Source: Solirubrobacterales bacterium
GTDB lineage: Bacteria; Actinomycetota; Thermoleophilia; Solirubrobacterales; 70-9
Assembly: GCA_036381235.1 (NCBI GenBank)
Contig: DASVDE010000014.1
Coordinates: 35,306 to 99,305 of the forward strand
DNA length: 64,000 nucleotides
Direction: 5' to 3'
Each line of letters begins with the position of its first letter. Positions within the stretch are counted from its first letter, which is position 1. Made by a program: the position numbers and the translations under genes. The notes under the pieces are model-generated. The model had not been told where the DNA came from. It saw only the letters and a list, made by a program, of their open reading frames with translations, and did not search any database. Below, one piece after another: positions 228 through 42,328 of this stretch.

Positions 228-1651
228 TAGAACTCTGGCCCCGCTGTGGCCACGTCCGCGATCGGCGGGCCCTCCCCGGCGGGCAGCTCGACCGGCCGTT
301 CCTGGCCGGCAAAGTCGGCGAACTTCGGAAAGCGGTCGAGGAATACGAGCTTGCGGGTGCCGATCGGCCCATTGCGGTGCTTGGCCACGATCAGGTCGGC
401 AAGGCCGTCCGGCTCATCCTCGGGGTCGCGGTAGTAGTCCTCGCGGAAGAGAAAGGCGACCAGGTCGGCGTCCTGTTCGAGCTGGCCGGACTCGCGCAGG
501 TCGGAGAGTTGCGGCTTGGGCGGATGGCGCTGCTCCGGCGCACGGGAGAGCTGGGAGATCGCCAGCACCGGCACCTCCAGCTCCCGGGCGAGGATCTTAA
601 GTCCGCGACTCATCTGGCCGACCTGCTCAACCCGGTTGGCGCGGTGGTCGTCGGATCGCATCAGCTGCAGGTAATCGACGATCACAAGCCCCAGCCCACC
701 CTTGTCCTGTTCCTGAGCGTGCAGGCGGCGCGCCTTGGCACGCAGATCGAGGATGCCGAGGTCGGAGGAGTCGTCAAACCACAGCGGCGCCTCCTCGAGC
801 TCGTTGCAGGCACGCACCACCTTCGGCCAGTCCTTCTGCGCCACCTGCCCCTTGCGCAGCTTGTCGCCCGAGATCCGCGCCCGGCAGGCGATGAAGCGCT
901 GCGCCAGCTCGACCTCGGACATCTCCAGAGAGAAGAACGCGACCGGCAGCTTGCGCTTGACCGCCACGTTCTCGGCGATGTTGGCGACCAGCGCCGACTT
1001 CCCCATCGCCGGCCTTGCCGCGACGATGATCAGGTTACCGGGCTGAAAGCCGCCGGTGATCGCGTCGATGTCCTTGAAGCCGGAGGGGGTGCCGGTCAGC
1101 TCGGTCTCGCCGGTAGAGAGCTTCTCGAGGCGATCGACCTCGTCGTGGAGGATCTCCGAGAGGAGGCGGAAGTCGCTCGCCTGCTCTTTGTGGGCGACGT
1201 CGAAGAGGAGCTTCTCGGCGCGCTCGGAGAGCTCGCGGGGCTCGCCGTCGCGCTCGTGGACCCAACCCTGGATCTGTTGACCGGCGCCGAGCAGGCGCCG
1301 CAGCAGCGAGTTCTGCTGGACGATCTCCGCGTAGTGCTTTGCGTTGCCGGCGGCGGGGACCTTGGCGGCCAGCTCGGAGACGTAGTGCTTGCCGCCCGCG
1401 TCTTCGATCCGGTTGCGTTGCGTGAGCGCCTCGGAGACGCTCAGTTCGTCGACCGGCTTCGACTCTGCGTAGAGGTCGTGAACGCACTCGAAGATCGCCC
1501 GGTGCTTGTCGAGGTAGAAGTCCTCGGCGTTCAGCTTGACCTCGTCGATGACGCGGGTCAGCGAGGATTCGGCGACCAGCATCGCCCCCAGCACCGACTC
1601 CTCGGCTTCGATGTTCTGAGGCGGGACGTGGGCTGTGGGTGCTTGGGCCAT
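227..1651 (-). CDS. dnaB: Replicative DNA helicase DnaB
   Basis: 474 aa. N-terminus PPQNIEAEESVLGAMLV, Walker A ARPAMGKSAL, and RecA-like C-terminal motifs (SLEMS, IVDYLQLM, ISQLSR) typical of DnaB. Confidence 0.95.
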   Translation of the reverse strand: MAQAPTAHVPPQNIEAEESVLGAMLVAESSLTRVIDEVKLNAEDFYLDKHRAIFECVHDLYAESKPVDELSVSEALTQRNRIEDAGGKHYVSELAAKVPAAGNAKHYAEIVQQNSLLRRLLGAGQQIQGWVHERDGEPRELSERAEKLLFDVAHKEQASDFRLLSEILHDEVDRLEKLSTGETELTGTPSGFKDIDAITGGFQPGNLIIVAARPAMGKSALVANIAENVAVKRKLPVAFFSLEMSEVELAQRFIACRARISGDKLRKGQVAQKDWPKVVRACNELEEAPLWFDDSSDLGILDLRAKARRLHAQEQDKGGLGLVIVDYLQLMRSDDHRANRVEQVGQMSRGLKILARELEVPVLAISQLSRAPEQRHPPKPQLSDLRESGQLEQDADLVAFLFREDYYRDPEDEPDGLADLIVAKHRNGPIGTRKLVFLDRFPKFADFAGQERPVELPAGEGPPIADVATAGPEF

Positions 1652-1758
1652 TAACTCAGTGTCCGGGGACCACCGGCGGCAATCCCGAGGGTGAGAACGT
1701 AGCCAAGGGGATCCTGTTTCGTGTAACCAAACCCGCCCTTTGCGACCGAATTCATCGG

Positions 1759-2076
1759 TCAGCGGAGATCGAGGACAAGGCCAAGGGCGTCATCGATCGT
1801 GGCGATCTCCTCCAAGGTCAAATGGCCAATCTGGGCCCCCAGCTTGCGAGCATCCACGGCGCTTGCCATCTCGCAAAGGACGCGCGTTGGCTCGTCGGTG
1901 AGACTCACCTCCGGATGAAAGGTTGCCGGCGGGGCCGACTGAGAAGTGGGACAGACAAGAACGGTCGAAAGGGCTAGCAGGTCGTCTGCCTGCACAACCA
2001 CCGCATAGCGACGTCCATGCTGAGCATGGCCACGCTTCCGGGGGAGGGCAATCTCGTGAACGTCACCCCGAACCAC
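1759..2076 (-). CDS. MazF/PemK-family toxin (type II TA)
   Basis: 105 aa starting at a GTG. The pattern RGDVHEI...GRRYAVVVQADDL...VLVCPTS is typical of PemK/MazF endoribonucleases. It overlaps the upstream RHH gene by 14 nt. Confidence 0.65.
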   Translation of the reverse strand: MVRGDVHEIALPRKRGHAQHGRRYAVVVQADDLLALSTVLVCPTSQSAPPATFHPEVSLTDEPTRVLCEMASAVDARKLGAQIGHLTLEEIATIDDALGLVLDLR

Positions 2077-2365
2077 GCAACTCCTCCATCAGCTCTGCCA
2101 CTTCACGAGCTTCTTTTATGTAGGCGGGATCGGCCATCAGCTGCCGCGCTTCGGCTGCCAGGCCAGCGCGCCGGCGTTCTCTCTGGGCGGCTTCGTCAAT
2201 CGCTTGACGAGCGGCCTCGGCGCGATTGATTCCTCGCCGCCGAGCCAAATACTCCAGGTCTCGGGCTCTCTCACGGCCGAGGCGCAACGACAGTGGAGAT
2301 GGAGCGGGAGCCACTTCGCGAAGTGTAGCGCAATTCGCACTACGGACTGAAACGAGACTGTCCAT
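2063..2365 (-). CDS. Ribbon-helix-helix (CopG-like) antitoxin
   Basis: 100 aa. The segment LSLRLGRERARDLEYLARRRGINRAEAARQAIDEA looks like an RHH DNA-binding fold with an acidic C-terminal tail. It overlaps the toxin start. The exact start is uncertain: ATG at 2365 or an internal GTG. Confidence 0.55.
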   Translation of the reverse strand: MDSLVSVRSANCATLREVAPAPSPLSLRLGRERARDLEYLARRRGINRAEAARQAIDEAAQRERRRAGLAAEARQLMADPAYIKEAREVAELMEELRGSG

Positions 2366-2444
2366 CGCCCAAGGCTGACCGACGCGATCTCGCGCATGTG
2401 CAAAGGGGGTCAGAAAGGCGCGACGTCTTTGTCACGAATGACGC

Positions 2445-3167
2445 CTATGCCGTTGGGGACGAACTCGCAGCGTCGGGTGGGGGGATCAGGCCCTCCCGCT
2501 CCTGATGGCGCTCGCCGCGGCGGAGCATGCGCTGGGTGAGGATGGCGATGCTGAGGATCGCGGTTGCGCCGAGGCTGAGCTGGATGCTGAGCAGGCCCTC
2601 GCGGGTCCAGTAGACGTCGCGCAGGTCCAGCAGAAGGGCTGCCTCGTCGAAGGTGAGGCCCATGCCGACGCCCATCGGGATTGCGAGACGATCCTCGAGA
2701 GTGTCGTCGTCGGTGAGCAGCGCCGTGGTGCCGGCGGCGAAGGCGATCAGGATTCCGGGCACGAAGTGGTGGATGTGGCGGCCGCCGACGCTGAAGTTGC
2801 GAAACGGGCCCCAGTCGTCCCGGATCCCCAGTGTCGAGAGGCGAACGAAGGCGAAGGCGCCGAGGAAGCCCGCGAGCAGGTTGAAGAGCACCGTCTCGCT
2901 GCGCGGCGTATCGGCATAGCCGCGGACCGCGACGCCGACCGTGTCGAGCGCCGCCGCGGGGGCCGCCTCGACCAACCCCTCTTTTCCGTCGCGCTCGTGG
3001 GAACGACGGCGCAGCATGCGGCCGAACTGCCCCGCCAACACCGTGCCGGCGCCGGCGAGCGCAACCGTGGCGAGACCGACGGTGGCACGCTCCGAGCGCG
3101 CCCAGCCGAAGCGCGCCCGCGCCCGGGCACGGCGGGTGATGCGGTTCGGCAAGCGCCGCGAAGCCAC
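2445..3167 (-). CDS. Integral membrane protein of unknown function
   Basis: 240 aa with several hydrophobic helices (VLFNLLAGFLGAFAFV, HHFVPGILIAFAAGTTALL, LSIQLSLGATAILSIAILT) and codon bias consistent with coding. The GTG start leaves only 34 bp to divergent purA, so the start is uncertain. Confidence 0.5.
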   Translation of the reverse strand: MASRRLPNRITRRARARARFGWARSERATVGLATVALAGAGTVLAGQFGRMLRRRSHERDGKEGLVEAAPAAALDTVGVAVRGYADTPRSETVLFNLLAGFLGAFAFVRLSTLGIRDDWGPFRNFSVGGRHIHHFVPGILIAFAAGTTALLTDDDTLEDRLAIPMGVGMGLTFDEAALLLDLRDVYWTREGLLSIQLSLGATAILSIAILTQRMLRRGERHQEREGLIPPPDAASSSPTA

Positions 3168-15088: not shown

Positions 15089-15270
15089 GGATCGTCGCCT
15101 TCCGCTCCACGGCCTCCGACCCAGTGGAACGGCGGGCGAATCGTATCCAAGGCACAGGCGCCAAGCGTGCGTGCAGGGGGTCTTAACTCGAATTCAACGC
15201 GCTACTCTGGTCATGCGGTTCGGTTATGACACCGGGAGGCGCTTTGGCAATCGAATGGAGGAGTAGCCAA

Positions 15271-16056
15271 ATGCGCAAACAGATGACTCTGACCCTCGCC
15301 TTGGCGGTGGCTGTAGCCGGCGCGGTCGTCGCTTCGACCGCGCTCGCAGCATTGGGGCCGACCGTGGTCGGCCCGGACGGAAACACCCAGGCGATCGATG
15401 TGAAGCTCTCGCCGAAGAAGCTCTCCAGGAGCACGGGAACCCCAGCCTCCTTGAAAGTGACCACGAAAACCACGACCACGACAAACGCGAACGGCGTGCC
15501 CTCGCCCGCCGTGCGGGCGGTGGTCGACTTCCCCAAAGGCGTGAGGCTGTTCGCGAAGGGGCTGCCCACCTGCGACGCCGGTCAGCTTCAAAACATCTCG
15601 ACCGACCAAGCGCTGCAGCTCTGCGGCGACGCCAAGATCGGCAGCGGCGCGGCGACGGCGCTGATCCCGGTTGGAGCCCAGGTCTTCACCGAGAACACGA
15701 CCGTGACCGCGTTCAACGGCAAGCCGCAGGGCAAGAAGCCCACGGTCCTGCTGCACACCTACGGTCAGGCGCCGGTGCAGGTGACCCTGGTGCTGAACGG
15801 AGTGATCAGCAACTACGACAAGCAAGGATACGGCCCGCGCTTGGACATCGGCATCCCGCTGATCGCGGGTGGCACCGGGGCGCTGACCGACTTCCAGACC
15901 ACGATCAACAAGAAATTCACCTACAAGGGGAAGAAGCGCAGCTTCGTGACGGCGATGTGCGCGAATTCTCCCCTGAAGTCGCGCGGCGCGTTCACCTTCA
16001 TGGATGGCGTGACGCTGACCGCGAAGTCGCAGCACGGCTGCACGAAGAAGAAGTAG
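15271..16056 (+). CDS. Secreted four-Cys protein, paralog 2 of 3
   Basis: The ATG at 15271 follows GGAGGA. Signal peptide MRKQMTLTLALAVAVAGAVVASTALA. It has the same motif set as 4647-5423 and 19663-20433: GLPTC...LC, FNG, IAGGTGA, FTYKGKKRS..TAMC...GC. It is divergent from the first mce gene. Confidence 0.7.
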   Translation: MRKQMTLTLALAVAVAGAVVASTALAALGPTVVGPDGNTQAIDVKLSPKKLSRSTGTPASLKVTTKTTTTTNANGVPSPAVRAVVDFPKGVRLFAKGLPTCDAGQLQNISTDQALQLCGDAKIGSGAATALIPVGAQVFTENTTVTAFNGKPQGKKPTVLLHTYGQAPVQVTLVLNGVISNYDKQGYGPRLDIGIPLIAGGTGALTDFQTTINKKFTYKGKKRSFVTAMCANSPLKSRGAFTFMDGVTLTAKSQHGCTKKK

Positions 16057-16066
16057 CCGCCGGCCT

Positions 16067-16181
16067 TAGCCCCCATCCGGTGAGGGTTTCGCTTAACTTT
16101 TTCGATGGTGCGGTTGCGGCTGTCCGCGATCGGGACGCCGAAAAAGTACAAGACGCTCCACCCTCGCCGGATGGGGGGCTA
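16067..16181 (+). repeat. Structured repeat element, copy 1 (long hairpin; possible ncRNA, 3'UTR element or MITE-like insertion)
   Basis: The outer stem pairs 16067-16087 with 16160-16181: 21 bp with one G-T wobble and one bulged G. The inner conserved blocks CGCTTAACTTTTTCGA (16090-16105) and CGAAAAAGTACAAGACGCTCC (16139-16159) are identical to those of copy 2. ACTTTTTCG pairs with CGAAAAAGT. The element starts 11 nt after the stop of the co-oriented gene at 15271-16056. Confidence 0.7.
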
Positions 16182-16212: not shown

Positions 16213-19200
16213 TTACTCGACGTTCAGTTTGGGCATGGCGCGGTCGAGCCATTTCGGCAGCCACCAGACCCGGTCGCCTGCCAGCAACATCAGCGCCGGC
16301 AGCAGGACGATGCGGACGACGGTCGCGTCGAGGAACACGGCCACGGTCAGTCCGACACCCAACTGGCTGGTGGTGGCGATCGGCGCACCGGCGAAGGCAA
16401 TGAAGACGGCGAGCATGATCGTCGCCGCTCCGGTGATCACCCTGGCCGTCTTCTCGAGACCGAACTTGATCGCTTCGGCGTTGTCCCCGTGCTGTTCGTA
16501 GTGCTCGCGCATCCGCACCAGGAGGAAGACCGCATAATCGATCGAGAGCCCGAAGATGACACCGAACATCATCGTCGCCCCAACCGCGTCGACGTAAGTG
16601 CGTCCGCCCAGCGGCCAGCCCTCGGGCACGTTGAAGAGCAGAGTGAGCACGCCGAAGGCAACCGCGACCGAGGCGAGGTTGAGCCCCACTGCGATAGCGG
16701 CGAGCGGTATCGCACGGAGGACGAGGAGCATGACGAGGAAGGTGGCAATCGTGATCGCGGTTACGACGATCGGTATCCGGTCCCGGGCGACGCGGCTGTA
16801 GGTGTTGAGCTGGGCGGTGCCGCCCGCGACCCCGGTCTTCAGATCCGCCTCCTCGCCCAGCGCCTTGGCGTCCTCGTCGAGCGTCTTGTTGAGCGCGATC
16901 GAGCCGGGTGAGTTGAGGCCGTACCTGGGAATCACGAAAAGGCTTGCCGCCTGGCCGCCGTTTTTCACGTCGACCGCCGTCGCAGCTTGATCGCGCAGCG
17001 ACCCCCGAGCCCCGTCGAGCGCTGAGAGCACGAAGTAGCCGGAGTCGAAGATGCCCGGGGTTTGGTTGCGGACCCGGTCGACCCTGCGGTTCAGTGAGGC
17101 GTTGTTGGCAACGACACGCGCCTGGATTCGTCGAAGGCCGGACTGCAGCGGATAGGAACGGTGGTAGGCCTCGCCGAGGCTCAGCTGCAGCTCGGTCGTC
17201 CCGCCGACCAGCTGTGAGAGGCCGCCGGAGAGCGAATCGGTGGCGCTGCCGAGTTGGACCAGCCCGTCGTTCAACTGGCCCATCGCGTCGGAGAGCTGTG
17301 TGGCGCCGCTGGACAGTTTCTTGCCGGCGGCGGCGATCTGATTCAGCCCATCATTGAGGCGATTCGCATTCGAGCTGAGCCGGTTCAGGTTGCCGATCTC
17401 GCTGGTCAGGAAGCTGGTTATCAGCTTCGATTGATTTGTGTCTTTGGCGAGACGCTTCTGCAGCTCCGTCAGCTCATTCGGCAGGCCGGTGTATTCCGCC
17501 GCATAGGGCTGGCCGGTTGCCGGATTGGTGCCGCTGACCGCAGCGAGCGCCTGCCGCACCGCAGCGAGCGCCGCGTCGTAGTTGGGATCGGTTTTTCCGA
17601 CGGTCATCGCGCCCAGCTGATCGAGGGCGGCCTGCAGCTGCTGCTGGGCGTCCTGGGCCGGCGGGATCAGCGTCGGGACCTTTAGCTTGGACTCCTCGTT
17701 GAGGGTTTTCTGCAGCTTGCGGGACCGCGCCAGTGGATTGTTGCGGAGGTTCCGAACCTCGTTTTTAAGCCCAACCTTGATCTGGAAAGACCCGACCGCC
17801 GCCTGCTCCTGGGCATCGGCCAGTCGCTCCGCGCCGGAGACAGACTTGTCGAGCGCCTTGACGATGCGCTCGCTGCCGGAGGTGGCCTTGCCGAGGCCCT
17901 GGGCGATGGCCACCGCCCCGTCCTCCGCCTGCCCGGAGCCGTCGACCAACAGCCCGGCGCCATATGTCGCCTGGGATATGCCGTCGCGCAGCGCCGTGAC
18001 TCCGGTGGCGGCGCGACCGAGGTTGACACCGAGCCTGTCGAGAGTTGCCAGCGGGCTGGCGTCGCCGGGGGCAAGGACACTGTTGCCGAATCTCTGCAGA
18101 GGTTTGACCGATTTGGCGACCTGATCGGGGCCGACCACCGCCTGCACGCCGGGCGTGTTGGCGATCTTCCGCTGCCAACGAGTCAAGGCGGAGAGGGTGT
18201 CGGGGTCGGTGATCGCGCCGTGGTCGGTGGCGGCGACGATCGTGAAGGGCGCGTCGAAGCCGGCGCCGATCGTCTGCGTGATCAGGTCGTAGTCCTCACG
18301 CGCGGGGTCGTCGTGGGGCAGCTGCCCGGGGCTGAGAGGCCCCGTCTTCAAAGCGACAGCCGGCGCGGCGAGGACGAGGACGATGAGCCCAATCACCGCG
18401 GCAACCGGGGCGGGACGGCGCAGCGCCGCGGAGACCATGATCATCAGCCGCGAGCGGCTCTCGTCGGCAGGCGGCGTGCCGATCCGCCAGCGATCGATGT
18501 TGGACCCAACCATGACGAGGAGCGGCGGGCCGATCAGGATTGCGACGAGCACGCTGAGCACGACGACCATCGCCAGCGTCGCTGCCAACGAGGCGAGCAG
18601 TGCCCCGGGGACGACGAAGAAGGCGACCGTCATCGAGAGGACCAGGGTGCTGCCGGCGAAAATGACAGTCTTGCCGGCGGTGCGACGGGTGACTATCGCC
18701 GCGTCGATCGGGTCGGCCCCGCCGCGCAACTCCTCACGGAAACGAGAGACGATCAGCAGCGCGTAGTCGACGCCGAGGGCGAGGCCCATCATCGTGCAGA
18801 CGGTCAGCGCGAGGGCGTCGACGGTGAACCAGTGGGTGAGCAGCGAGAGCAGCCCGCTGGAGACGAACACCGTGGTGGCGCCGAAGGCGAGTGGGATCGC
18901 TGCGGCGATCGGCGATCGGAAGACCAGCAGCAGGACGATAAGCAGGATCGGGAGCGCGATCAGCTCGCTGCGCTCGCTGGCGGAGATCGACTCGTCCTGG
19001 ATCGCCCGCGAAATGGTGGCGAAGCCGGTCTGGGTGGAGACAACCGGCGAGTGGACGTGCTCGGCCAGCGTCTCGTTGACCAAATCGACTTTCTCGTTTA
19101 CCGCCTCTTCCACGCCAACGTGGAAGTCGACAACGACCAAGGCGCGACGCGGGGATGGGCGAAGCGCCGCGACAGAGCCGCGATCCCAGGGCGACAGCGT

Positions 19201-19467
19201 GGTAACCGCGGGGTCTTCGCGGAATACGCGGACCAGGTTCTGGCCCTGCCGGTTGATCTCGCCGGTCGGCCCACGCAGGAGGATCGCGAAGGTCGCGGTC
19301 TCACCGAAGTGGTCGCGCAGGATCTCGTTGGCCCGCGAGGCGTCGGTGCCGGAGATATCGAGACTGCTGGGCGCGAGTTGCTCCTCGACGTTCAACCCGA
19401 TGACGCCGAGCACAGCGAAGATCAGCAGCGCGACGGCAAGCACCCGGCGCGGGTACCGCAGCATCAT
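16213..19467 (-). CDS. MMPL/RND-superfamily membrane transporter with a large coiled-coil heptad-repeat insertion
   Basis: There are two MMPL-type 6-TM bundles (near the N-terminus and at the C-terminus). A central extracytoplasmic region of about 400 aa is rich in xxxLxxG-type heptads (LSSGATQLSDAMGQLNDGLVQLGSATDSLSGGLSQLVGGTTEL), as seen in YhgE/Pip-like proteins. The start is placed at the ATGATG (19467), giving MMLRYPRRVLAVALLIF. The longer ORF reaching 19593 is Arg-rich. Confidence 0.8.
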   Translation of the reverse strand: MMLRYPRRVLAVALLIFAVLGVIGLNVEEQLAPSSLDISGTDASRANEILRDHFGETATFAILLRGPTGEINRQGQNLVRVFREDPAVTTLSPWDRGSVAALRPSPRRALVVVDFHVGVEEAVNEKVDLVNETLAEHVHSPVVSTQTGFATISRAIQDESISASERSELIALPILLIVLLLVFRSPIAAAIPLAFGATTVFVSSGLLSLLTHWFTVDALALTVCTMMGLALGVDYALLIVSRFREELRGGADPIDAAIVTRRTAGKTVIFAGSTLVLSMTVAFFVVPGALLASLAATLAMVVVLSVLVAILIGPPLLVMVGSNIDRWRIGTPPADESRSRLMIMVSAALRRPAPVAAVIGLIVLVLAAPAVALKTGPLSPGQLPHDDPAREDYDLITQTIGAGFDAPFTIVAATDHGAITDPDTLSALTRWQRKIANTPGVQAVVGPDQVAKSVKPLQRFGNSVLAPGDASPLATLDRLGVNLGRAATGVTALRDGISQATYGAGLLVDGSGQAEDGAVAIAQGLGKATSGSERIVKALDKSVSGAERLADAQEQAAVGSFQIKVGLKNEVRNLRNNPLARSRKLQKTLNEESKLKVPTLIPPAQDAQQQLQAALDQLGAMTVGKTDPNYDAALAAVRQALAAVSGTNPATGQPYAAEYTGLPNELTELQKRLAKDTNQSKLITSFLTSEIGNLNRLSSNANRLNDGLNQIAAAGKKLSSGATQLSDAMGQLNDGLVQLGSATDSLSGGLSQLVGGTTELQLSLGEAYHRSYPLQSGLRRIQARVVANNASLNRRVDRVRNQTPGIFDSGYFVLSALDGARGSLRDQAATAVDVKNGGQAASLFVIPRYGLNSPGSIALNKTLDEDAKALGEEADLKTGVAGGTAQLNTYSRVARDRIPIVVTAITIATFLVMLLVLRAIPLAAIAVGLNLASVAVAFGVLTLLFNVPEGWPLGGRTYVDAVGATMMFGVIFGLSIDYAVFLLVRMREHYEQHGDNAEAIKFGLEKTARVITGAATIMLAVFIAFAGAPIATTSQLGVGLTVAVFLDATVVRIVLLPALMLLAGDRVWWLPKWLDRAMPKLNVE

Positions 19468-19490
19468 GGGATGGCGACGCTCGCCATCCC
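19468..19490. promoter_or_regulatory. Perfect 10-3-10 palindrome abutting the MMPL start codon (operator-like or RBS-occluding hairpin)
   Basis: On the gene (minus) strand it reads GGGATGGCGA-gcg-TCGCCATCCC, immediately 5' of ATGATG. No Shine-Dalgarno is visible outside the 3' arm. Confidence 0.45.
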
Positions 19491-19662
19491 GCTCTGGGCG
19501 AACGCGATCCTTCCGCCTCCCCCTGCTCCTCCTCCACACAGGCACGAACCATAGTTTGGCGGTTCGGCGAAAAAAAGGCGCCGCGAAACGCAAAAGACTC
19601 TGTTAAGAACAGGCGCATCCCGAGCGCGCGCAACATTTGACGCTAGCCTCGGTTCGAGGAGC

Positions 19663-27273: not shown

Positions 27274-28547
27274 GCGAAAGCCTCGTTGAGAGCCTCGGCG
27301 GCGGCTTCAAGGGTACGGTCGATCGCGGCCTCGTCGTGGGCGAGGGAGGGGAACCACGCTTCGAACTGCGAGGGGGGCGGGTAGACCCCGCGCTCGAGCA
27401 GGGCGCGGCAGAAGGCGGCGTGAGCCTCAGTGTCGCAAGCCGAGGCTCCAGCGAAGTCGTGAACCGGCACCTCGCTGAAGAAGAGGGTGAACAGGCCGGG
27501 GACCGAGGCAACCTGGAGCGGGCGGTCCCGGACCAACTCCGAAAAGCCCGCCGTAAGCCGATCGGTGAGCTCTCCCAGCCGTCGGTAGGCATCGCCATCG
27601 AGGCGGCGCAGCGTGACGAGACCGGCAGCGACCGCGACGGGGCTGCCGGAGAGGGTCCCCGCCTGGTAGACGTCGCCAACAGGGGAGATCCGCTCCATCA
27701 GATCGCGGCGGCCGGCGAAGGCAGCCGCCGGGAGGCCGCCCCCCAGCACCTTGCCGAGCACGGTGAGGTCGGGCTCGACCCCGTAGAGCTGCTGAGCGCC
27801 GCCGCGGGAGAGGCGGAAGCCGGTGATCACCTCGTCGAAGACGAGAAGGGCGCCGGCGGCCGTGGTGGCGTCGCGAAGGAACTCAAGGAAGCCGGGCTCA
27901 GGCGGGACGATCCCCATGTTGGCTGCGACCGGCTCGGCGATCAGGGCGGCGACCGGATGGTCGAGCAGGGCGCGGCGCACCGCGTCGCGGTCGTTCCAAG
28001 GAACGACGACGGTGGTGGCAGTCTGGCCGGCGGTGACACCGGGGCTGGCCGGTATCGCGAGTGTCGCGAGGCCGGAGCCGGCGTCTGCCAGCAGCCCATC
28101 GGAATGGCCGTGGTAGGCGCCGGCGAACTTGACGACGACCTCGCGGTCGGTTGCAGCGCGGGCGAGGCGGATGGCGCTCATCGCCGCTTCGGTTCCGGAG
28201 CTGGTCATCCGCGCCATCTCAACCGAGGGGACGCGGGCGACAACCTCTTCGGCCAGCTCGACCTCGTCCTCGGTCGGGGCGCCGAAGCTCGAACCGCGAG
28301 CGGCGGCCCCGGCGGCGGCGGCAACCACCTCGGGGTCGGCGTGGCCGAGGATCAGCGGCCCCCATGAGCCGACCCAGTCGATGTACCGATTGCCGTCGAC
28401 GTCGACGAGCTCGCAGCCCTCGCCGCGCTCGATGAAGACCGGATCGCGGCCGATCTGGCGCATCGCGCGGACGGGGCTGTTCACACCCCCCGGCAGTACT
28501 TTCAGCGCACGGCGGTAGAGCTCACCGGAGCGCTCGTAGCTAGGAAT
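27270..28547 (-). CDS. hemL: Glutamate-1-semialdehyde 2,1-aminomutase
   Basis: It has ...YERSGELYRRALKVLPGGVNSPVRAM..., GSWGPLILGHADP, and a class-III aminotransferase body. No ATG/GTG/TTG lies at the expected N-terminus. The start is placed at ATT 28547 (GGGAGG plus a 6-nt spacer); the alternative is CTG 28565 (GAGGA plus a 5-nt spacer). The 574-aa ORF in the track is an artefactual extension across ahbAB. Confidence 0.85.
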   Translation of the reverse strand: MPSYERSGELYRRALKVLPGGVNSPVRAMRQIGRDPVFIERGEGCELVDVDGNRYIDWVGSWGPLILGHADPEVVAAAAGAAARGSSFGAPTEDEVELAEEVVARVPSVEMARMTSSGTEAAMSAIRLARAATDREVVVKFAGAYHGHSDGLLADAGSGLATLAIPASPGVTAGQTATTVVVPWNDRDAVRRALLDHPVAALIAEPVAANMGIVPPEPGFLEFLRDATTAAGALLVFDEVITGFRLSRGGAQQLYGVEPDLTVLGKVLGGGLPAAAFAGRRDLMERISPVGDVYQAGTLSGSPVAVAAGLVTLRRLDGDAYRRLGELTDRLTAGFSELVRDRPLQVASVPGLFTLFFSEVPVHDFAGASACDTEAHAAFCRALLERGVYPPPSQFEAWFPSLAHDEAAIDRTLEAAAEALNEAFA

Positions 28548-29634
28548 GCTCGGCCTCCCAGGCAGCGTAGTCCTCGGTGAAGTAGTGGAGGCGGATCTTC
28601 TTGTACTCGGTCGAGGAGTAGAGGGTGGCGCGGTCGTCGGGGCCCATCCCGCACTCCTCGGCGATCGAGTCGAGGATCGCGTCACATTCCTCCTTGGAGC
28701 GGCCGTGGGCCATGGTGAAGACGCTGTAAGGCCAATCTTCGTAGGTCGGACGCTGGTAGCAGTGGGAGATGCCGCGGAAGGAAGCCATCCGGCGGCCGGT
28801 CTGCATGATCTCTGTCTCGGACACCTTCCAGACCCCCATGCCGTTTGCCGAGAAGCCGGCGCGGCGGTGGAAGAGGATCGCCGCGACGCGACGCAGGATC
28901 TTGCGGTCGGCCATCCCGCGCAGATGCGCGAGCAGGTCCTCGGTGGAGAGTCCGATCTCGGCCGCGGCGGCGTCGTAGGGCCGCTCCACCGCATCCATCG
29001 GCCCCTGCAGGGCGCGGATCACCGCGATGTCGCGCTCGTCGTAGGGCTGGGCCTCCAGCTCACGGGGGGGTGAGGCGTCGACCGCGGCGGAGAGCGCCTC
29101 TGTCCCCTTCTCCATCTCCAGGTTCATGTTGATCTTGAACAAGGTCAGGGTGGGCAACTGGCGCATCGACTCGGCGCCGGTCTCCCGCATCAGCACGTCG
29201 AGGGTCCCATCCAAACCCAGCTTGGAGTCAGGCGGGGTGGCAATCGTGAACCAGAGGTTGAAATCGTGGGTGCGCAGGTAATTGTGGGAAACGCCCGGAT
29301 GGGAGTTGACGATCGCCGCGGCGCGTTGGGGGTTCTCGGCGTCGACTTTGGCGGCGACCAGCATCGACTCGTAGCCGAGCGCGCGGGTGTCGAAGATCGG
29401 GGTGATCTCACGGATGATTCGCTCGTCAAGGAGACGGCGGGTGCGGGTGAGAACATCGTCCAGCTCCAGCTCGGCCTCGGCGGCAACCGAGGCGAAGGGC
29501 TCGGCGGCGAGCGGAAAGCTCGACTGGAGCAGGTTCATCAGCCGCTTGTCGGTCTCGTCAAGCGGAATCGCGGCGCCGTCCTTGCGGGAGCGGGCCTTCG
29601 ACTGGGGGACCTTGGGGGTTCCTACCGAAGCCAC
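28540..29634 (-). CDS. ahbAB: Fused AhbA/AhbB (NirD/L-like) sirohaem decarboxylase, two tandem Lrp/AsnC-like modules
   Basis: 364 aa made of two repeats, each an HTH followed by the signature HPGVSHNYLR...FNLWFTIA in the first and ISHCYQRPTY..WPYSVFTMAHG in the second. It sits between hemB and hemL. Confidence 0.7.
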   Translation of the reverse strand: MASVGTPKVPQSKARSRKDGAAIPLDETDKRLMNLLQSSFPLAAEPFASVAAEAELELDDVLTRTRRLLDERIIREITPIFDTRALGYESMLVAAKVDAENPQRAAAIVNSHPGVSHNYLRTHDFNLWFTIATPPDSKLGLDGTLDVLMRETGAESMRQLPTLTLFKINMNLEMEKGTEALSAAVDASPPRELEAQPYDERDIAVIRALQGPMDAVERPYDAAAAEIGLSTEDLLAHLRGMADRKILRRVAAILFHRRAGFSANGMGVWKVSETEIMQTGRRMASFRGISHCYQRPTYEDWPYSVFTMAHGRSKEECDAILDSIAEECGMGPDDRATLYSSTEYKKIRLHYFTEDYAAWEAEHS

Positions 29635-33552: not shown

Positions 33553-34882
33553 CGCCACCCAGTGCAACGAGGAGCAGCGGATAGAACCAGACGATGTAGA
33601 GGTAGAACCAGTGCTGGGCGGTCAGCTGCAACCCGATCAGCAGCGCGGCACCCAATGCCGCCACCTGCACCAGGGTCTTCTTGCGCGGTCGAAACGCCAG
33701 CAGAACGGACAGCGCTCCAACGACAGTGAGGATCGCGACCCGCAACGGCTCCAGACTGCTGACCTGACCCCAGATGCTGAACGGAGAATCTCTGCCGGCC
33801 TGGTAGGCGATCGTCCGGTCGTAGAACGTTGAGATCCCCGGATCGATCAGGGCCCAGGCCATCACTGCCGTTGAGGCGATGACAAATGCGCCGGCGAATA
33901 GTGCCGCGGGTGGCAGGGGGGGAGGGGGGTCGAGGACAGCCCGTGGACTGCCCGCAGGGCCCCCCTCCCCCCCTGCCACCCGCGGTCTATACGTCGCGAG
34001 CATCGGAACCAGCAGGACCGGAGCGAACTTCGTGAAGACGGCCAGAGATGCAAGCGCGCCCCGTGCAATCGGGCGGGCGAGGAGCAGCAGGGTGGCGACC
34101 AAAAGCAAGGCGACGAGGGAGTCGTTGGAGTTGGACTGCAGGACGAAGTCGGTGTATGGGTAGGCGGCCCAGCCGAAGGCGAAAGTGGCGCCCAGTTTCT
34201 GGCCGGAGGGTCCGGGGCGGATGCGGCGGCCGAGGAGGAAAAGCAGGGCGAAGGTGGCGAGGTCGAAGAAGACTGCGGCGCCGTGGGCGGCGGGGAGATC
34301 GTTCCACGTCCCCGACCAGGGCCAGATCCGCTCGAAGGGAACGTAGGCGTAGTAGTTGACCGGGCCATAGGTGTCGCCCTGGGAAACGTCGTCGGGGAAG
34401 TTGCCGTAGATCGGCTCGCCGTGGGCGATGCGGTTGGCGCCCACCTCGCTCGCGTAACCGACGTCGATCACACCCGAGTCGGCCATGTTGAGGCCGACTC
34501 GGAAACCGACCAGGAAGAGAGCGGCGATCAGCAGCCAGGTCGCCGGCCAGACTGGGCGCAGCCCCTCCCCCCCGCCGCGGAAGCCGATCCACAACGCACG
34601 GCAGAGGAGGTAGAGCAGCGGTGGGTACTGGAGGGGAACGGAGACGCCGATCTCACCGCGGTTGAACCAGATGTGGGAGAGGCCGAAGGCGAGCAGGACC
34701 AACAGGTCGAGGTTGGCGATACGCCAGGGGCGGCGCCAGTCGACTAGGCCAGCGAGGAACATCGCGCAGAGCGGAACGAAGACGTAGGGGGCGTTGAGCT
34801 TGTGACCGAACTGGCCCTCATAACCGCGCGCCATCTCCCAGGCGGCCTGATAGCCGTGCCAGACGGTCTCCGGGTCGGTCAC
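33494..34882 (-). CDS. Polytopic membrane protein, possible GT-C-type glycosyl/mannosyltransferase
   Basis: 462 aa with more than 10 predicted TM helices. The function is only a guess from the architecture. Its 3' end overlaps the convergent ymdB-like gene by 59 nt. Confidence 0.4.
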   Translation of the reverse strand: MTDPETVWHGYQAAWEMARGYEGQFGHKLNAPYVFVPLCAMFLAGLVDWRRPWRIANLDLLVLLAFGLSHIWFNRGEIGVSVPLQYPPLLYLLCRALWIGFRGGGEGLRPVWPATWLLIAALFLVGFRVGLNMADSGVIDVGYASEVGANRIAHGEPIYGNFPDDVSQGDTYGPVNYYAYVPFERIWPWSGTWNDLPAAHGAAVFFDLATFALLFLLGRRIRPGPSGQKLGATFAFGWAAYPYTDFVLQSNSNDSLVALLLVATLLLLARPIARGALASLAVFTKFAPVLLVPMLATYRPRVAGGEGGPAGSPRAVLDPPPPLPPAALFAGAFVIASTAVMAWALIDPGISTFYDRTIAYQAGRDSPFSIWGQVSSLEPLRVAILTVVGALSVLLAFRPRKKTLVQVAALGAALLIGLQLTAQHWFYLYIVWFYPLLLVALGGVKDRREPSPARSSWPTPDR

Positions 34883-41554: not shown

Positions 41555-42283
41555 CTAGTGGGACCCACGGGGGCGCTTCTTGGCCATGCCCGGTCGGCGG
41601 GGGAGATCTGCAGGAGTTGTGCCCGTCTTGCGGACTACGTGGAGATGGCGGTGCTCGCTGCCTGCGCGGGGGCCGACGGGGAGGATCTGCTCGGGGCGCA
41701 TCCCTAACTGAGCCGCGGCTCTATCCAGCTGCTGCTCTTCGTCGGGGTCGCGCCTTCCCTTCCAGGCGACCAGCACCCCGCCTTCTCGCAGAAGCGGAGA
41801 GGCCAGCTCGGCGAGAGTCGAGAGGCGGCCCACCGCGCGCGCGGTGACCGCCCCGTAGGCCTCGCGACCTTCGCCCCCCGCGAGCTCCTCCGAGCGCGCG
41901 TAGATCACATGCGCGTTCGAAATTCCCGAAGCATCGACCGCCCGTTGCATGAAGTCGCACTTGCGGCCGATCGACTCGACTAGATCTACCTGAGCTTGAG
42001 GGTTAGCCGCGGCGATTACCAGGCCGGGAAACCCAGCCCCAGAGCCAATATCCGCGATTCGATCGGCTTCGCGAAGCTCCGGAACCTCAAGCCCGGTGAG
42101 GCTGTCCTCGACATGGACCCGCCAAGCTCTTTCGTCCGTAATCGAGCTTACCGAGGCTCGCTCGCTCGCCAGAAGCTCCAAGACGCGCGCGATCGTCGCG
42201 CGCTGGGCGGGCTCGAGGGAGGGTCCCGGTAGGGGCGGAGCGTCTTGTACTTTTTCGTCGTCAGCCATCGTCCATCGCCGCAT
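41555..42283 (-). CDS. rsmG: 16S rRNA (guanine527-N7)-methyltransferase RsmG (GidB)
   Basis: It has HVEDSL and the SAM motif DIGSGAGFPGLVIA. Both candidate ATG starts (42283 and 42268) lie inside the loop of repeat-element copy 2, so the N-terminus is uncertain. Confidence 0.85.
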   Translation of the reverse strand: MRRWTMADDEKVQDAPPLPGPSLEPAQRATIARVLELLASERASVSSITDERAWRVHVEDSLTGLEVPELREADRIADIGSGAGFPGLVIAAANPQAQVDLVESIGRKCDFMQRAVDASGISNAHVIYARSEELAGGEGREAYGAVTARAVGRLSTLAELASPLLREGGVLVAWKGRRDPDEEQQLDRAAAQLGMRPEQILPVGPRAGSEHRHLHVVRKTGTTPADLPRRPGMAKKRPRGSH

Positions 42284-42328
42284 AGGCAGCTTCGAAAAAG
42301 TTAAGCGGAGTCCCTACCGGGACCCTCC
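42218..42328 (-). repeat. Structured repeat element, copy 2 (long hairpin between the jag stop and rsmG)
   Basis: A perfect 17-bp outer stem: GGAGGGTCCCGGTAGGG (minus strand, 42328-42312) pairs with CCCTACCGGGACCCTCC (42234-42218). The inner blocks are identical to copy 1: plus-strand 42292-42307 is the reverse complement of CGCTTAACTTTTTCGA, and 42237-42257 is the reverse complement of CGAAAAAGTACAAGACGCTCC. Confidence 0.7.

Follow-up and report, generated by a model that had tools for sequence, protein, structure and literature searches.

An old, order-wide family of palindromic DNA repeats at gene ends in Solirubrobacterales, probably of mobile-DNA origin

The 64,000-nt stretch of contig DASVDE010000014.1 from a Solirubrobacterales bacterium (assembly GCA_036381235.1, positions 35,306 to 99,305 of the forward strand), referred to below as the window, carries two copies of a long nested hairpin element. 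The element probably belongs to an old family of non-autonomous palindromic DNA repeats, ~118 bp long, that occurs across the order Solirubrobacterales (class Thermoleophilia) and originated as mobile DNA, and it now behaves like a mostly immobile sequence located at gene ends. The original prediction, made from the letters of the window, had offered three possibilities: a structured RNA maintained by compensatory change, a miniature inverted-repeat transposable element (MITE) that targets pre-existing hairpin loops, or a protein-binding inverted repeat. Overall, the RNA reading is weakened, the mobile-DNA reading is strengthened, amended in that the stems travel with the element, and the protein-site reading survives for the core.

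The common plan of the unit is a 21-bp outer stem (P1), an asymmetric AT-rich core containing the helices P2 and P3, and a variable tip of 33-38 nt. Both predicted loci were borne out, copy 1 at 16067-16181 (+) and copy 2 at 42218-42328 (-). The exact block CGCTTAACTTTTTCGA occurs twice in the window, at 16090-16105 and 42292-42307, as does the exact block CGAAAAAGTACAAGACGCTCC, at 16139-16159 and 42237-42257. This recurrence is far above chance, the occurrences expected from dinucleotide shuffles being 0.12 and 0.00, respectively, and no additional match to either block was found in the window with 3 mismatches allowed. The nested hairpin is real and is the minimum-free-energy (MFE) structure of both copies. 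The RNA folding energy is -74.0 kcal/mol for copy 1 (z -6.5) and -63.1 kcal/mol for copy 2 (z -5.6), and folding the two strands as DNA gives -39.2/-33.2 and -34.8/-33.1 kcal/mol, respectively. The predicted loop lengths, 34 nt in copy 1 and 35 nt in copy 2, were confirmed, as was the outer stem of copy 1, with 21 pairs, one G-T and one bulge.

Copies are also found beyond the window. The search for further copies that the original prediction had called for revealed an order-wide family. The 18-mer CGAAAAAGTACAAGACGC was scanned across 185,579 species genomes and gave at least 118 loci. Among the matches listed there are at least 120 true copies in at least 72 metagenome-assembled genomes (MAGs), and the complete element is present at all of the listed loci but one (L066, a chance match). 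The listed matches are labelled almost only as Solirubrobacterales, Thermoleophilia, Conexibacteraceae or unresolved 'Actinomycetes'. Typical copies were also seen in L049 (JBLMYD01, labelled Chloroflexota) and in L006 ('uncultured bacterium'); their contexts are orthologous to the Solirubrobacterales loci L034 and L046, so that these contig or bin labels are probably wrong.

A covariance model, R1, was built from 121 copies (alignment A2). Within the window it recognised only copy 1 (102.3 bits, E 7e-24) and copy 2 (103.9 bits). Within ~920 kb of fetched loci it recognised 17-20 more copies without the exact 18-mer, or about one per 46 kb. Extrapolated from these extra copies and from the window's two per 64 kb, the density suggests some tens of copies per 2.5-3 Mb genome. 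The extra copies, being free of the 18-mer selection, also revealed subfamilies II-IV. Type II (CCACTT...GACGTTCC) has 8 copies and type III is represented by L097:7417 and L084:6671. Type IV (L002:3877 and L078:444) is more distantly related and retains no more than the T5/A5 helix and a loop motif. The two type IV copies (L002 3877-3996 and L078 444-564) score 32-36 bits with R1, have the form GGGTTTTTCGCC...GGCGAAAAAG with the loop motif CCGTCCGAGAT, possess a long outer stem of their own and share a genome with types I and II.

The evidence that the whole unit arrived as DNA comes from filled and empty sites. In L063 a full copy (347-465) lies directly past a stop codon, upstream of a hemL-like gene. 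The orthologous site in the window (28520-28560, -) is empty: the TAG at 28542-28540 is followed by CTACGAGCG..., with no hairpin. The absence of a hairpin at this empty site implies that the whole outer stem belongs to the insert. A large membrane-protein gene in L061, L007 and L067 contains a copy that is antisense to the gene and read through in frame (...EYAGV-GVRAGGGASCTFSS...KKLSGTPRPHPAP-TFEARSS...), and L114 is grouped with these three as a membrane-protein gene carrying an in-frame copy. At the same site L073 has an uninterrupted open reading frame (ORF) and no hairpin, and L003 has a remnant of only ~22 nt. A further copy, in L080, is in frame, and in the same frame, within a GT4 glycosyltransferase, in the linker between the Pfam domains Glyco_transf_4 and Glycos_transf_1. 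Both of these unrelated genes encode ...ASCTFS...KKLSG(T/P)P.... Finally, MAG JBJMKO01 contains a pair of copies, L028 and L118, that are 97.3% identical over 111 nt; the similarity stops at the P1 boundaries and the flanks are unrelated, which is the signature of an apparent recent duplication of the whole unit.

These sites also bear on the proposed MITE that targets hairpin loops. Its mobile-DNA origin is well supported. The loop-targeting part does not stand, since the clean empty sites, in the window and in L073, are hairpin-free and the outer stem arrives with the element; insertion into pre-existing hairpins was rejected for new insertions. In a weaker version, resident copies may swap their inner modules and retain their own outer stems. 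Permutation tests anchored on the stem end and, separately, on the core both failed to reveal a target-site duplication; their sole signals were self-complementary dinucleotides inside the stem. Given these negative tests, the TAG...TAG around the L063 copy was treated as incidental. Identical termini with target-site duplications, which were to have reclassified the element as an ordinary MITE, were thus not seen.

Truncated 5' halves, ending ...CGCTTAAC or ...TTAACTTTTT(CG), lie beside full copies in L012, L016, L045, L077, L078 and L110. The breaks occur after TTAAC in L016, L045 and L077 and after TTAACTTTTT(CG) in L078 and L110, so clustering at the TTAAC/T5 junction. In L020 (1280-1343) exactly P3 and the loop are deleted. 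No orphan half-elements were found flanking a gene; there were only two orphan 5' blocks, both beside full copies. In comparison with the ortholog, its 5' arm corresponds to that of the orphan in L078 and L110, and its 3' arm to that of the full copy.

The outer stem had been described as copy-specific. Almost any sequence is indeed tolerated there, but the description does not hold wholly, as the 121 copies drift around the consensus (T)GAGGGCCnnTCCCGGYAGGGG. Pairing in P1 is ~90% up to position 18, 74% at position 19 and 60% at position 20, and then falls to background (~35%). Most often P1 is 21 bp long, and in 105 of 135 copies its length is 19-23 bp. Overall, 94.7% of P1 cells in the alignment are paired, compared with 76.9% in shuffles and 40-53% with slid partners. 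Double changes are found at 20 of the 21 pairs, with 695 double-changed cells vs 200 in shuffles. The four G:C pairs of P1 that adjoin the core are nearly invariant.

The proposal of a structured RNA held together by compensatory change fits this last set of counts, with double changes at nearly every P1 pair; it fares less well against the mismatches, the antisense tandem copies (16 of 53) and the copies within genes. On the sense strand, P1 contains 39 A-C mismatches vs 12 G-U, and in tandem copies with both neighbouring genes in the sense direction the figures are 19 and 4. G-U pairs make up ~1.7% of P1 cells. Selection on the sense RNA would predict the reverse, and this lack of preference for G-U over A-C speaks against it. 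A single orthologous group and a single polymorphic position contribute part of the A-C excess; the absence of a G-U preference is robust. The excess could reflect a strand-specific function or a mutation bias. C.A mismatches are conserved in the orthologous group L031/L037/L090/L107, where the opposite strand has G.T wobbles. The explanation that we prefer for the pairing is a requirement for the hairpin at the DNA level, or arm-to-arm correction of the quasi-palindrome by template switching, or both. Template switching at quasi-palindromes is established in E. coli genetics. Such correction stops at non-complementary flanks, which would explain why the stem stays at its inherited 21 bp.

The core is of the form TTCCGCTTAACTTTTTCG ... 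CGAAAAAGTACAAGACGCTCCA. From the outside inwards it comprises a UCC/UCC internal loop, a GC/GC mini-helix, an asymmetric loop and a 9-bp helix (ACTTTTTCG/CGAAAAAGT), and its two halves are asymmetric, with 9 vs 13 nt between P3 and P1. Of the 12 predicted pairs of P2 and P3, 8 never vary, and every one is retained by no fewer than 116 of the 121 copies. Covariation was found between the G of CGCTT and the final C of GACGC (G2':C9), with 125 G:C, 8 A:T and 3 other combinations (Fisher 4e-12), which suggests a pair closing the symmetric UCC/UCC internal loop. Both states occur at one orthologous position, L065:4500 having G:C and L101:6587 A:T in flanks that are ~91% identical. The middle bases of the two strands of the UCC loop (A2 columns 25/102) show a correlated but non-complementary C/T variation (CC 87, TT 17, CT 19, TC 13; odds ratio 6, p 8e-5), the states of which cluster by genome. 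The apical region is 33-38 nt long (mode 34) and carries no more than ~1 bit per position besides GCYGNC, a weak motif in its centre. A conserved hairpin at the apex (P4) was ruled out, the loop MFE being -11.19 kcal/mol compared with -11.23 kcal/mol in shuffles. For the invariant core, the proposed protein-binding inverted repeat is a plausible reading.

The variable parts of the element give an indication of its age. Identity between copies of the same genome is scarcely different from that between genomes (loop 0.62 vs 0.59, P1 0.57 vs 0.54). In 75 orthologous pairs, with flanks mostly 75-90% identical, the loop identity is 0.63 vs a background of 0.59, and that of the outer P1 is 0.53 vs 0.39. 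Being near background, these values imply that the variable parts are essentially saturated, while core, pairing and lengths have been kept. Most copies are judged to be old, since orthologues are common to species with saturated neutral sites. Within one genome, L099 and L103 share an inner 94 nt at 92.6% identity and have unrelated outer arms, and all three copies of that genome carry a private P3 variant, AACTTCTTTCG. Orthologous copies past the gene that ends '...EIGIWFPELG*' have similar outer arms and different loop classes, and the classes recur at unrelated loci. We infer from these patterns that the core-plus-loop module has probably been converted (non-allelically) or replaced between resident copies.

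Taken together, the preferred mechanism is as follows. The whole unit, stems included, has inserted as DNA without a detectable target-site duplication. A conserved protein acting in trans, for example a transposase or recombinase specific for hairpins, would recognise the core in the folded strand; that it nicks near TTAAC is guesswork based on the breakpoints of the truncated copies. The arms would be kept complementary at the DNA level, either because the hairpin is required or through template-switch correction from arm to arm, and core and loop would be homogenised or exchanged among resident copies by gene conversion, keeping old copies intact. Since copies occupy the sites of terminator-type hairpins in related genomes, they probably also act as gene-end hairpins.

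Gene contexts were assigned to 138 copies with a gene caller based on GC content at third codon positions. The copy lies between convergent genes in 43 cases, between tandem genes in the sense direction in 37 and in the antisense direction in 16, and between divergent genes in 5; one flank was uncalled for 19, and 18 are apparently intragenic, only two gene families being robust among these. Approximately 85% or more of the copies are intergenic. In ~30 copies the upstream stop codon overlaps the first base or bases of P1, and the same is found for convergent downstream genes. Downstream genes mostly start 9-30 nt past the element. The copies are single and dispersed among housekeeping genes, for example jag-rsmG, ftsH-folP, ylqC-trmD and xerD-fpg. 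At L043 (1133-1210) and L065 (1041-1118) unrelated hairpins of ~77 nt stand where other genomes have the element, in xerD-fpg and in another convergent pair; these are possibly ordinary terminators. The sense strand of the element is the G-rich strand in 61 cases vs 35, a bias confounded with gene orientation. There is no skew switch at the dnaA/jag region of the window, and for both of these reasons GC skew was dropped as a replichore marker.

The closest competitor for explaining this placement is a cis-acting RNA hairpin of 3' untranslated and intercistronic regions, which terminates or insulates transcription, blocks 3' exonucleases or is cleaved by an RNase specific for double strands. 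Proteins would then recognise the core and the 21-bp stem, which makes two helical turns, and an ancient spread would have been followed by selection at each locus. The preponderance of convergent and sense tandem contexts over divergent ones, and the stops that overlap the first stem base, are in its favour, as are the unrelated hairpins of related genomes at equivalent intergenic sites (L043, L065). So is the retention of core, stem pairing, stem length and total length in orthologues with saturated loops. In addition, stem mismatches amount to 2.1% in convergent copies vs 4.4% in tandem copies, as expected if both transcripts fold. However, there is no U-tract past the stem, the 3' flank being T-enriched at its first position only (44/115), and terminator scans gave no terminator-like site on the outer stem; in copy 1 the site called is outside the element, in copy 2 it is a short antisense stem in the core, and the counts are within the shuffle range. 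A-C exceeds G-U even in sense-only contexts, and 16 tandem copies are antisense to both neighbours. Intact copies also persist within conserved coding genes, which a strong terminator would forbid, and which argues against strong termination at least in the antisense orientation. As an account of the family we consider this rather unlikely. It explains maintenance and not origin, and is thus better regarded as an exapted secondary role than as a true alternative; from the positions of the copies, a secondary role as a gene-end hairpin is plausible.

Stand-alone structured RNA genes, small RNAs or ribozyme-like, with the core as functional centre and stems kept by compensation, would account for the very strong covariation and for an internal-loop core with a covarying closing pair. 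R1 bit scores also differ greatly between strands, ~100-119 for sense and 18-48 for antisense. Nevertheless, only two tRNAs pass the Rfam gathering thresholds in the window and nothing in Rfam lies over copy 1 at E up to 10; no promoter-like sites were found nearby. An estimated 50 or more copies per genome lie close against stop codons, others lie within ORFs, and copies are found both sense and antisense to transcription. The wobble signature is missing and in fact reversed, and the invariant core helices suggest a recognition that is sequence-specific and not purely structural. Such genes are very improbable indeed. Slightly less so, though still quite improbable, is a duplex-DNA site for a dimeric chromosomal protein of the nucleoid-associated, partition or topoisomerase type, with the hairpin potential incidental. 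Within DNA of ~61-70% GC, the core forms an imperfect inverted repeat whose AT-rich blocks are invariant, the G2'/C9 change is identical on both half-sites, and the strands of the stem are equivalent; moreover, E. coli REP/BIME elements are bound by gyrase and IHF. A duplex site, however, gives no reason for 21 hypervariable base-pairs to stay self-complementary or for the fixed stem length, and the half-sites differ by a conserved 4-nt asymmetry and hence are not equivalent in the duplex. Unlikely too is a two-layer system in which a conserved, order-wide protein recognises the folded, asymmetric core (UCC/UCC loop, GC/GC pair and AT-rich helix) on one DNA strand and copies or swaps the inner module of core and loop between resident hairpins. 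This would proceed by homing-like conversion nicking near TTAAC, with the locus-specific 21-bp arms kept perfect by fold-back correction. It would represent a new hairpin-directed recombination or transposition, distinct from RAYT, IS200/IS605 and integron integrases, with copies domesticated as gene-end punctuation.

Several points weigh against the mobile-DNA origin or limit the data on which it is based. The gene calls come from a crude caller, and all the related sequences are MAGs. The seeds were chosen by an exact 18-mer, which inflates the apparent invariance of the 3' block, the 5' block being free of that selection; in the unbiased extra copies each half of the core has 0-5 mismatches, with higher numbers in types III and IV. 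The orientation of tandem copies is non-random, and the excess of sense over antisense (37 vs 16) fits a bias that is RNA-level or linked to replication. Perfect pairing and intact cores in very old copies could equally reflect selection on each copy for a host function. A single filled and empty pair cannot separate insertion from precise deletion, and the remnant in L003 is clearly a product of deletion. Only one pair (L028/L118) looks recently duplicated, and any current mobility is thus putative. No transposase or partner protein was found, and no IS200/Y1-type gene in ~1 Mb around the copies; that search was a tblastn of the loci and the window with one IS200 TnpA query (Pfam Y1_Tnp, 131 bits), which gave nothing at E below 6.

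One transposase gene beside copies of the element was considered as an autonomous partner. It is an IS1595-like gene in L010 and was rejected, as it has its own, unrelated 24-bp inverted repeats (TGGAGCTAAGCGGGTACGCACTAG). The insertion sequence (IS) spans 1541-2584, with an ORF at 1607-2527 (-) for 306 amino acids with a zinc-ribbon N-terminus. It lies between two full copies where other genomes have one, and solo IS1595-like ends are present at 1382-1418 and 1548-1571.

Copy 1, of ~115 nt, starts 11 nt past the TAG at 16054-16056, as predicted, between the convergent stops of an ORF at 15226-16056 (+) and an MMPL-type ORF at 16213-19593 (-). Its P1 5' arm (TAGCCCCCATCCGGTGAGGGT) occupies 16067-16087 (+) and corresponds in A2 to P1 columns 3-23, the arms being placed from the MFE folds. 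The 5' half of the core (16088-16104) reads TT-CGCTT-A-ACTTTTTCG and consists of the pyrimidine internal loop, the P2 5' arm and the P3 5' arm; its columns are invariant or at least 90% conserved in the 121 copies. The variable apical region of 34 nt (16105-16138) contains the weak central motif as GCTGTCCGC. It is followed by the 3' half of the core at 16139-16159, CGAAAAAGT-AC-AAG(A)CG-CTCC, and by the P1 3' arm at 16160-16181 (ACCCTCGCCGGATGGGGGGCTA), which includes the one G-T and one bulged G; in A2 the 3' arm of P1 takes up columns 104-124.

Copy 2 follows jag/khpB (Pfam KH and R3H) and precedes rsmG on the same strand. As had been noted, it abuts the stop codon directly, the stem beginning on the G of the jag/khpB TAG (42330-42328). 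On the minus strand, its P1 5' arm (GGAGGGTCCCGGTAGGG), the first base of which is this G, occupies 42312-42328, and the 5' half of the core (ACTC-CGCTT-A-ACTTTTTCG) 42293-42311. The apical region of 35 nt (42258-42292) has ATGs at 42283-42281 and 42268-42266 that are both in frame with rsmG, the 3' half of the core (CGAAAAAGTACAAGACGCTCC) is at 42237-42257 and the P1 3' arm (CCCCTACCGGGACCCTCC) at 42218-42235. L089 and L095 have orthologues of copy 2 at the same jag-rsmG site. From an ATG in the apical loop, all three read in frame and stop-free through the 3' half of the element into rsmG, with a predicted product MA(A/D)DEKVQDAPP... that leads to the conserved RsmG segment ...RATIARVLELL.... 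In L089 there is no other in-frame ATG or GTG ahead of the conserved ...RATIA... segment. Going by these reading frames, the element may provide the rsmG start and ~25-30 N-terminal codons. Elsewhere in the window, at 33904-33985, lies a perfect 26-bp inverted repeat of G/C runs (CCGCGGGTGGCAGGGGGGGAGGGGGG and its complement) with a 30-nt spacer. This repeat has no relation to the element and occurs in none of the fetched loci.

Solirubrobacterales are abundant soil actinobacteria known mostly from MAGs, and in the literature searched no repeat family has been described for them so far. The element is an easy order-specific marker that R1 finds at >90 bits, and it marks gene ends in very compact genomes. 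Gene callers will misread it, adding spurious extensions to N- or C-termini or in-frame inserts. It also offers a clean natural data set for telling the maintenance of a palindrome at the DNA level from compensatory evolution at the RNA level, and it points to a putative partner protein that recognises hairpins.

The family was compared with known systems. Literature on Solirubrobacterales, on REPIN/RAYT in Actinobacteria and on the literal sequence blocks contained no matching repeat, and the plasmid collection gave no match. Three 18-mer matches in viral contigs were not recognised by R1 and are thus attributed to chance. REPINs are hairpin-forming inverted doublets of ~100 nt, present in tens to hundreds of copies and mostly extragenic at gene ends. 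They lack a target-site duplication, fall into several sequence groups per genome and persist vertically for long periods, with conserved blocks around a spacer in which only length and pairing matter and compensatory changes are common (Bertels & Rainey 2011, PMC3116915). The element, too, forms a long hairpin with two conserved inverted blocks, here asymmetric and placed inside a variable outer stem. Features in common are the copy number, the extragenic bias, the lack of a target-site duplication, compensatory changes, several sequence groups and long vertical persistence. However, a REPIN is conserved at its ends and variable in its centre, whereas here the ends are hypervariable and the core stands between P1 and a variable tip. 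Its core halves are strongly asymmetric, some copies are intragenic, and the copies of one genome share only the core, with no master-sequence cluster. The RAYT (Y1/HUH tyrosine transposase) gene of REP systems is single-copy and in most cases has the repeats on its flanks. With the single IS200 TnpA query, no RAYT/Y1 gene was seen near the copies in ~1 Mb.

Rickettsia palindromic elements (RPEs) are repeats of ~100-150 bp that can sit in frame in coding genes, adding a peptide segment (PMC10969869). The present element likewise inserts in frame and leaves the ORF open, in two unrelated genes. It differs in belonging to another phylum, making homology to RPE-1 to RPE-10 unlikely, in being intragenic in only 2 robust gene families among ~140 copies, and in having most of its copies flush with stops; an invariant core between hypervariable arms has not been described for RPEs. 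MITEs such as Correia, ERIC and Nezha are small, non-autonomous and intergenic. They have terminal inverted repeats, their transcripts form hairpins, one may be inserted in another, and they can influence termination or the processing of mRNA (PMC10969869). Unlike them, the element has no target-site duplication and hypervariable termini, and no parent IS with matching ends was found. In all of the at least 120 exact 18-mer matches listed, the 5' block is within ~35 nt, so that none encloses a gene.

The attC sites of integrons are recognised as folded strands, with two short helices bearing unpaired or extrahelical bases below a variable terminal structure, and lie just past stop codons; their R''/R' boxes are RYYYAAC ... 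GTTRRRY, and the cassette arrays are found beside an IntI integrase gene. The GCTTAAC of the element fits the inverse-core RYYYAAC, and truncated copies break at TTAAC. However, GTACAAGACGC stands on the 3' side where GTTRRRY would be expected, the boxes lie away from the base of the structure, and the element has an extra 21-bp outer stem, dispersed single copies and no integrase in view. Mycobacterial interspersed repetitive units (MIRUs) are actinobacterial intercistronic repeats, with ends that overlap flanking stop and start codons, in direct tandem units of 40-100 bp. The overlap of the jag stop with P1, and the in-frame loop ATG that can start rsmG, are reminiscent of these, but MIRUs are direct tandem units and not long hairpins. 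The family is previously undescribed and stands outside every named family, its nearest relatives in kind being REPIN/REP elements and RPEs.

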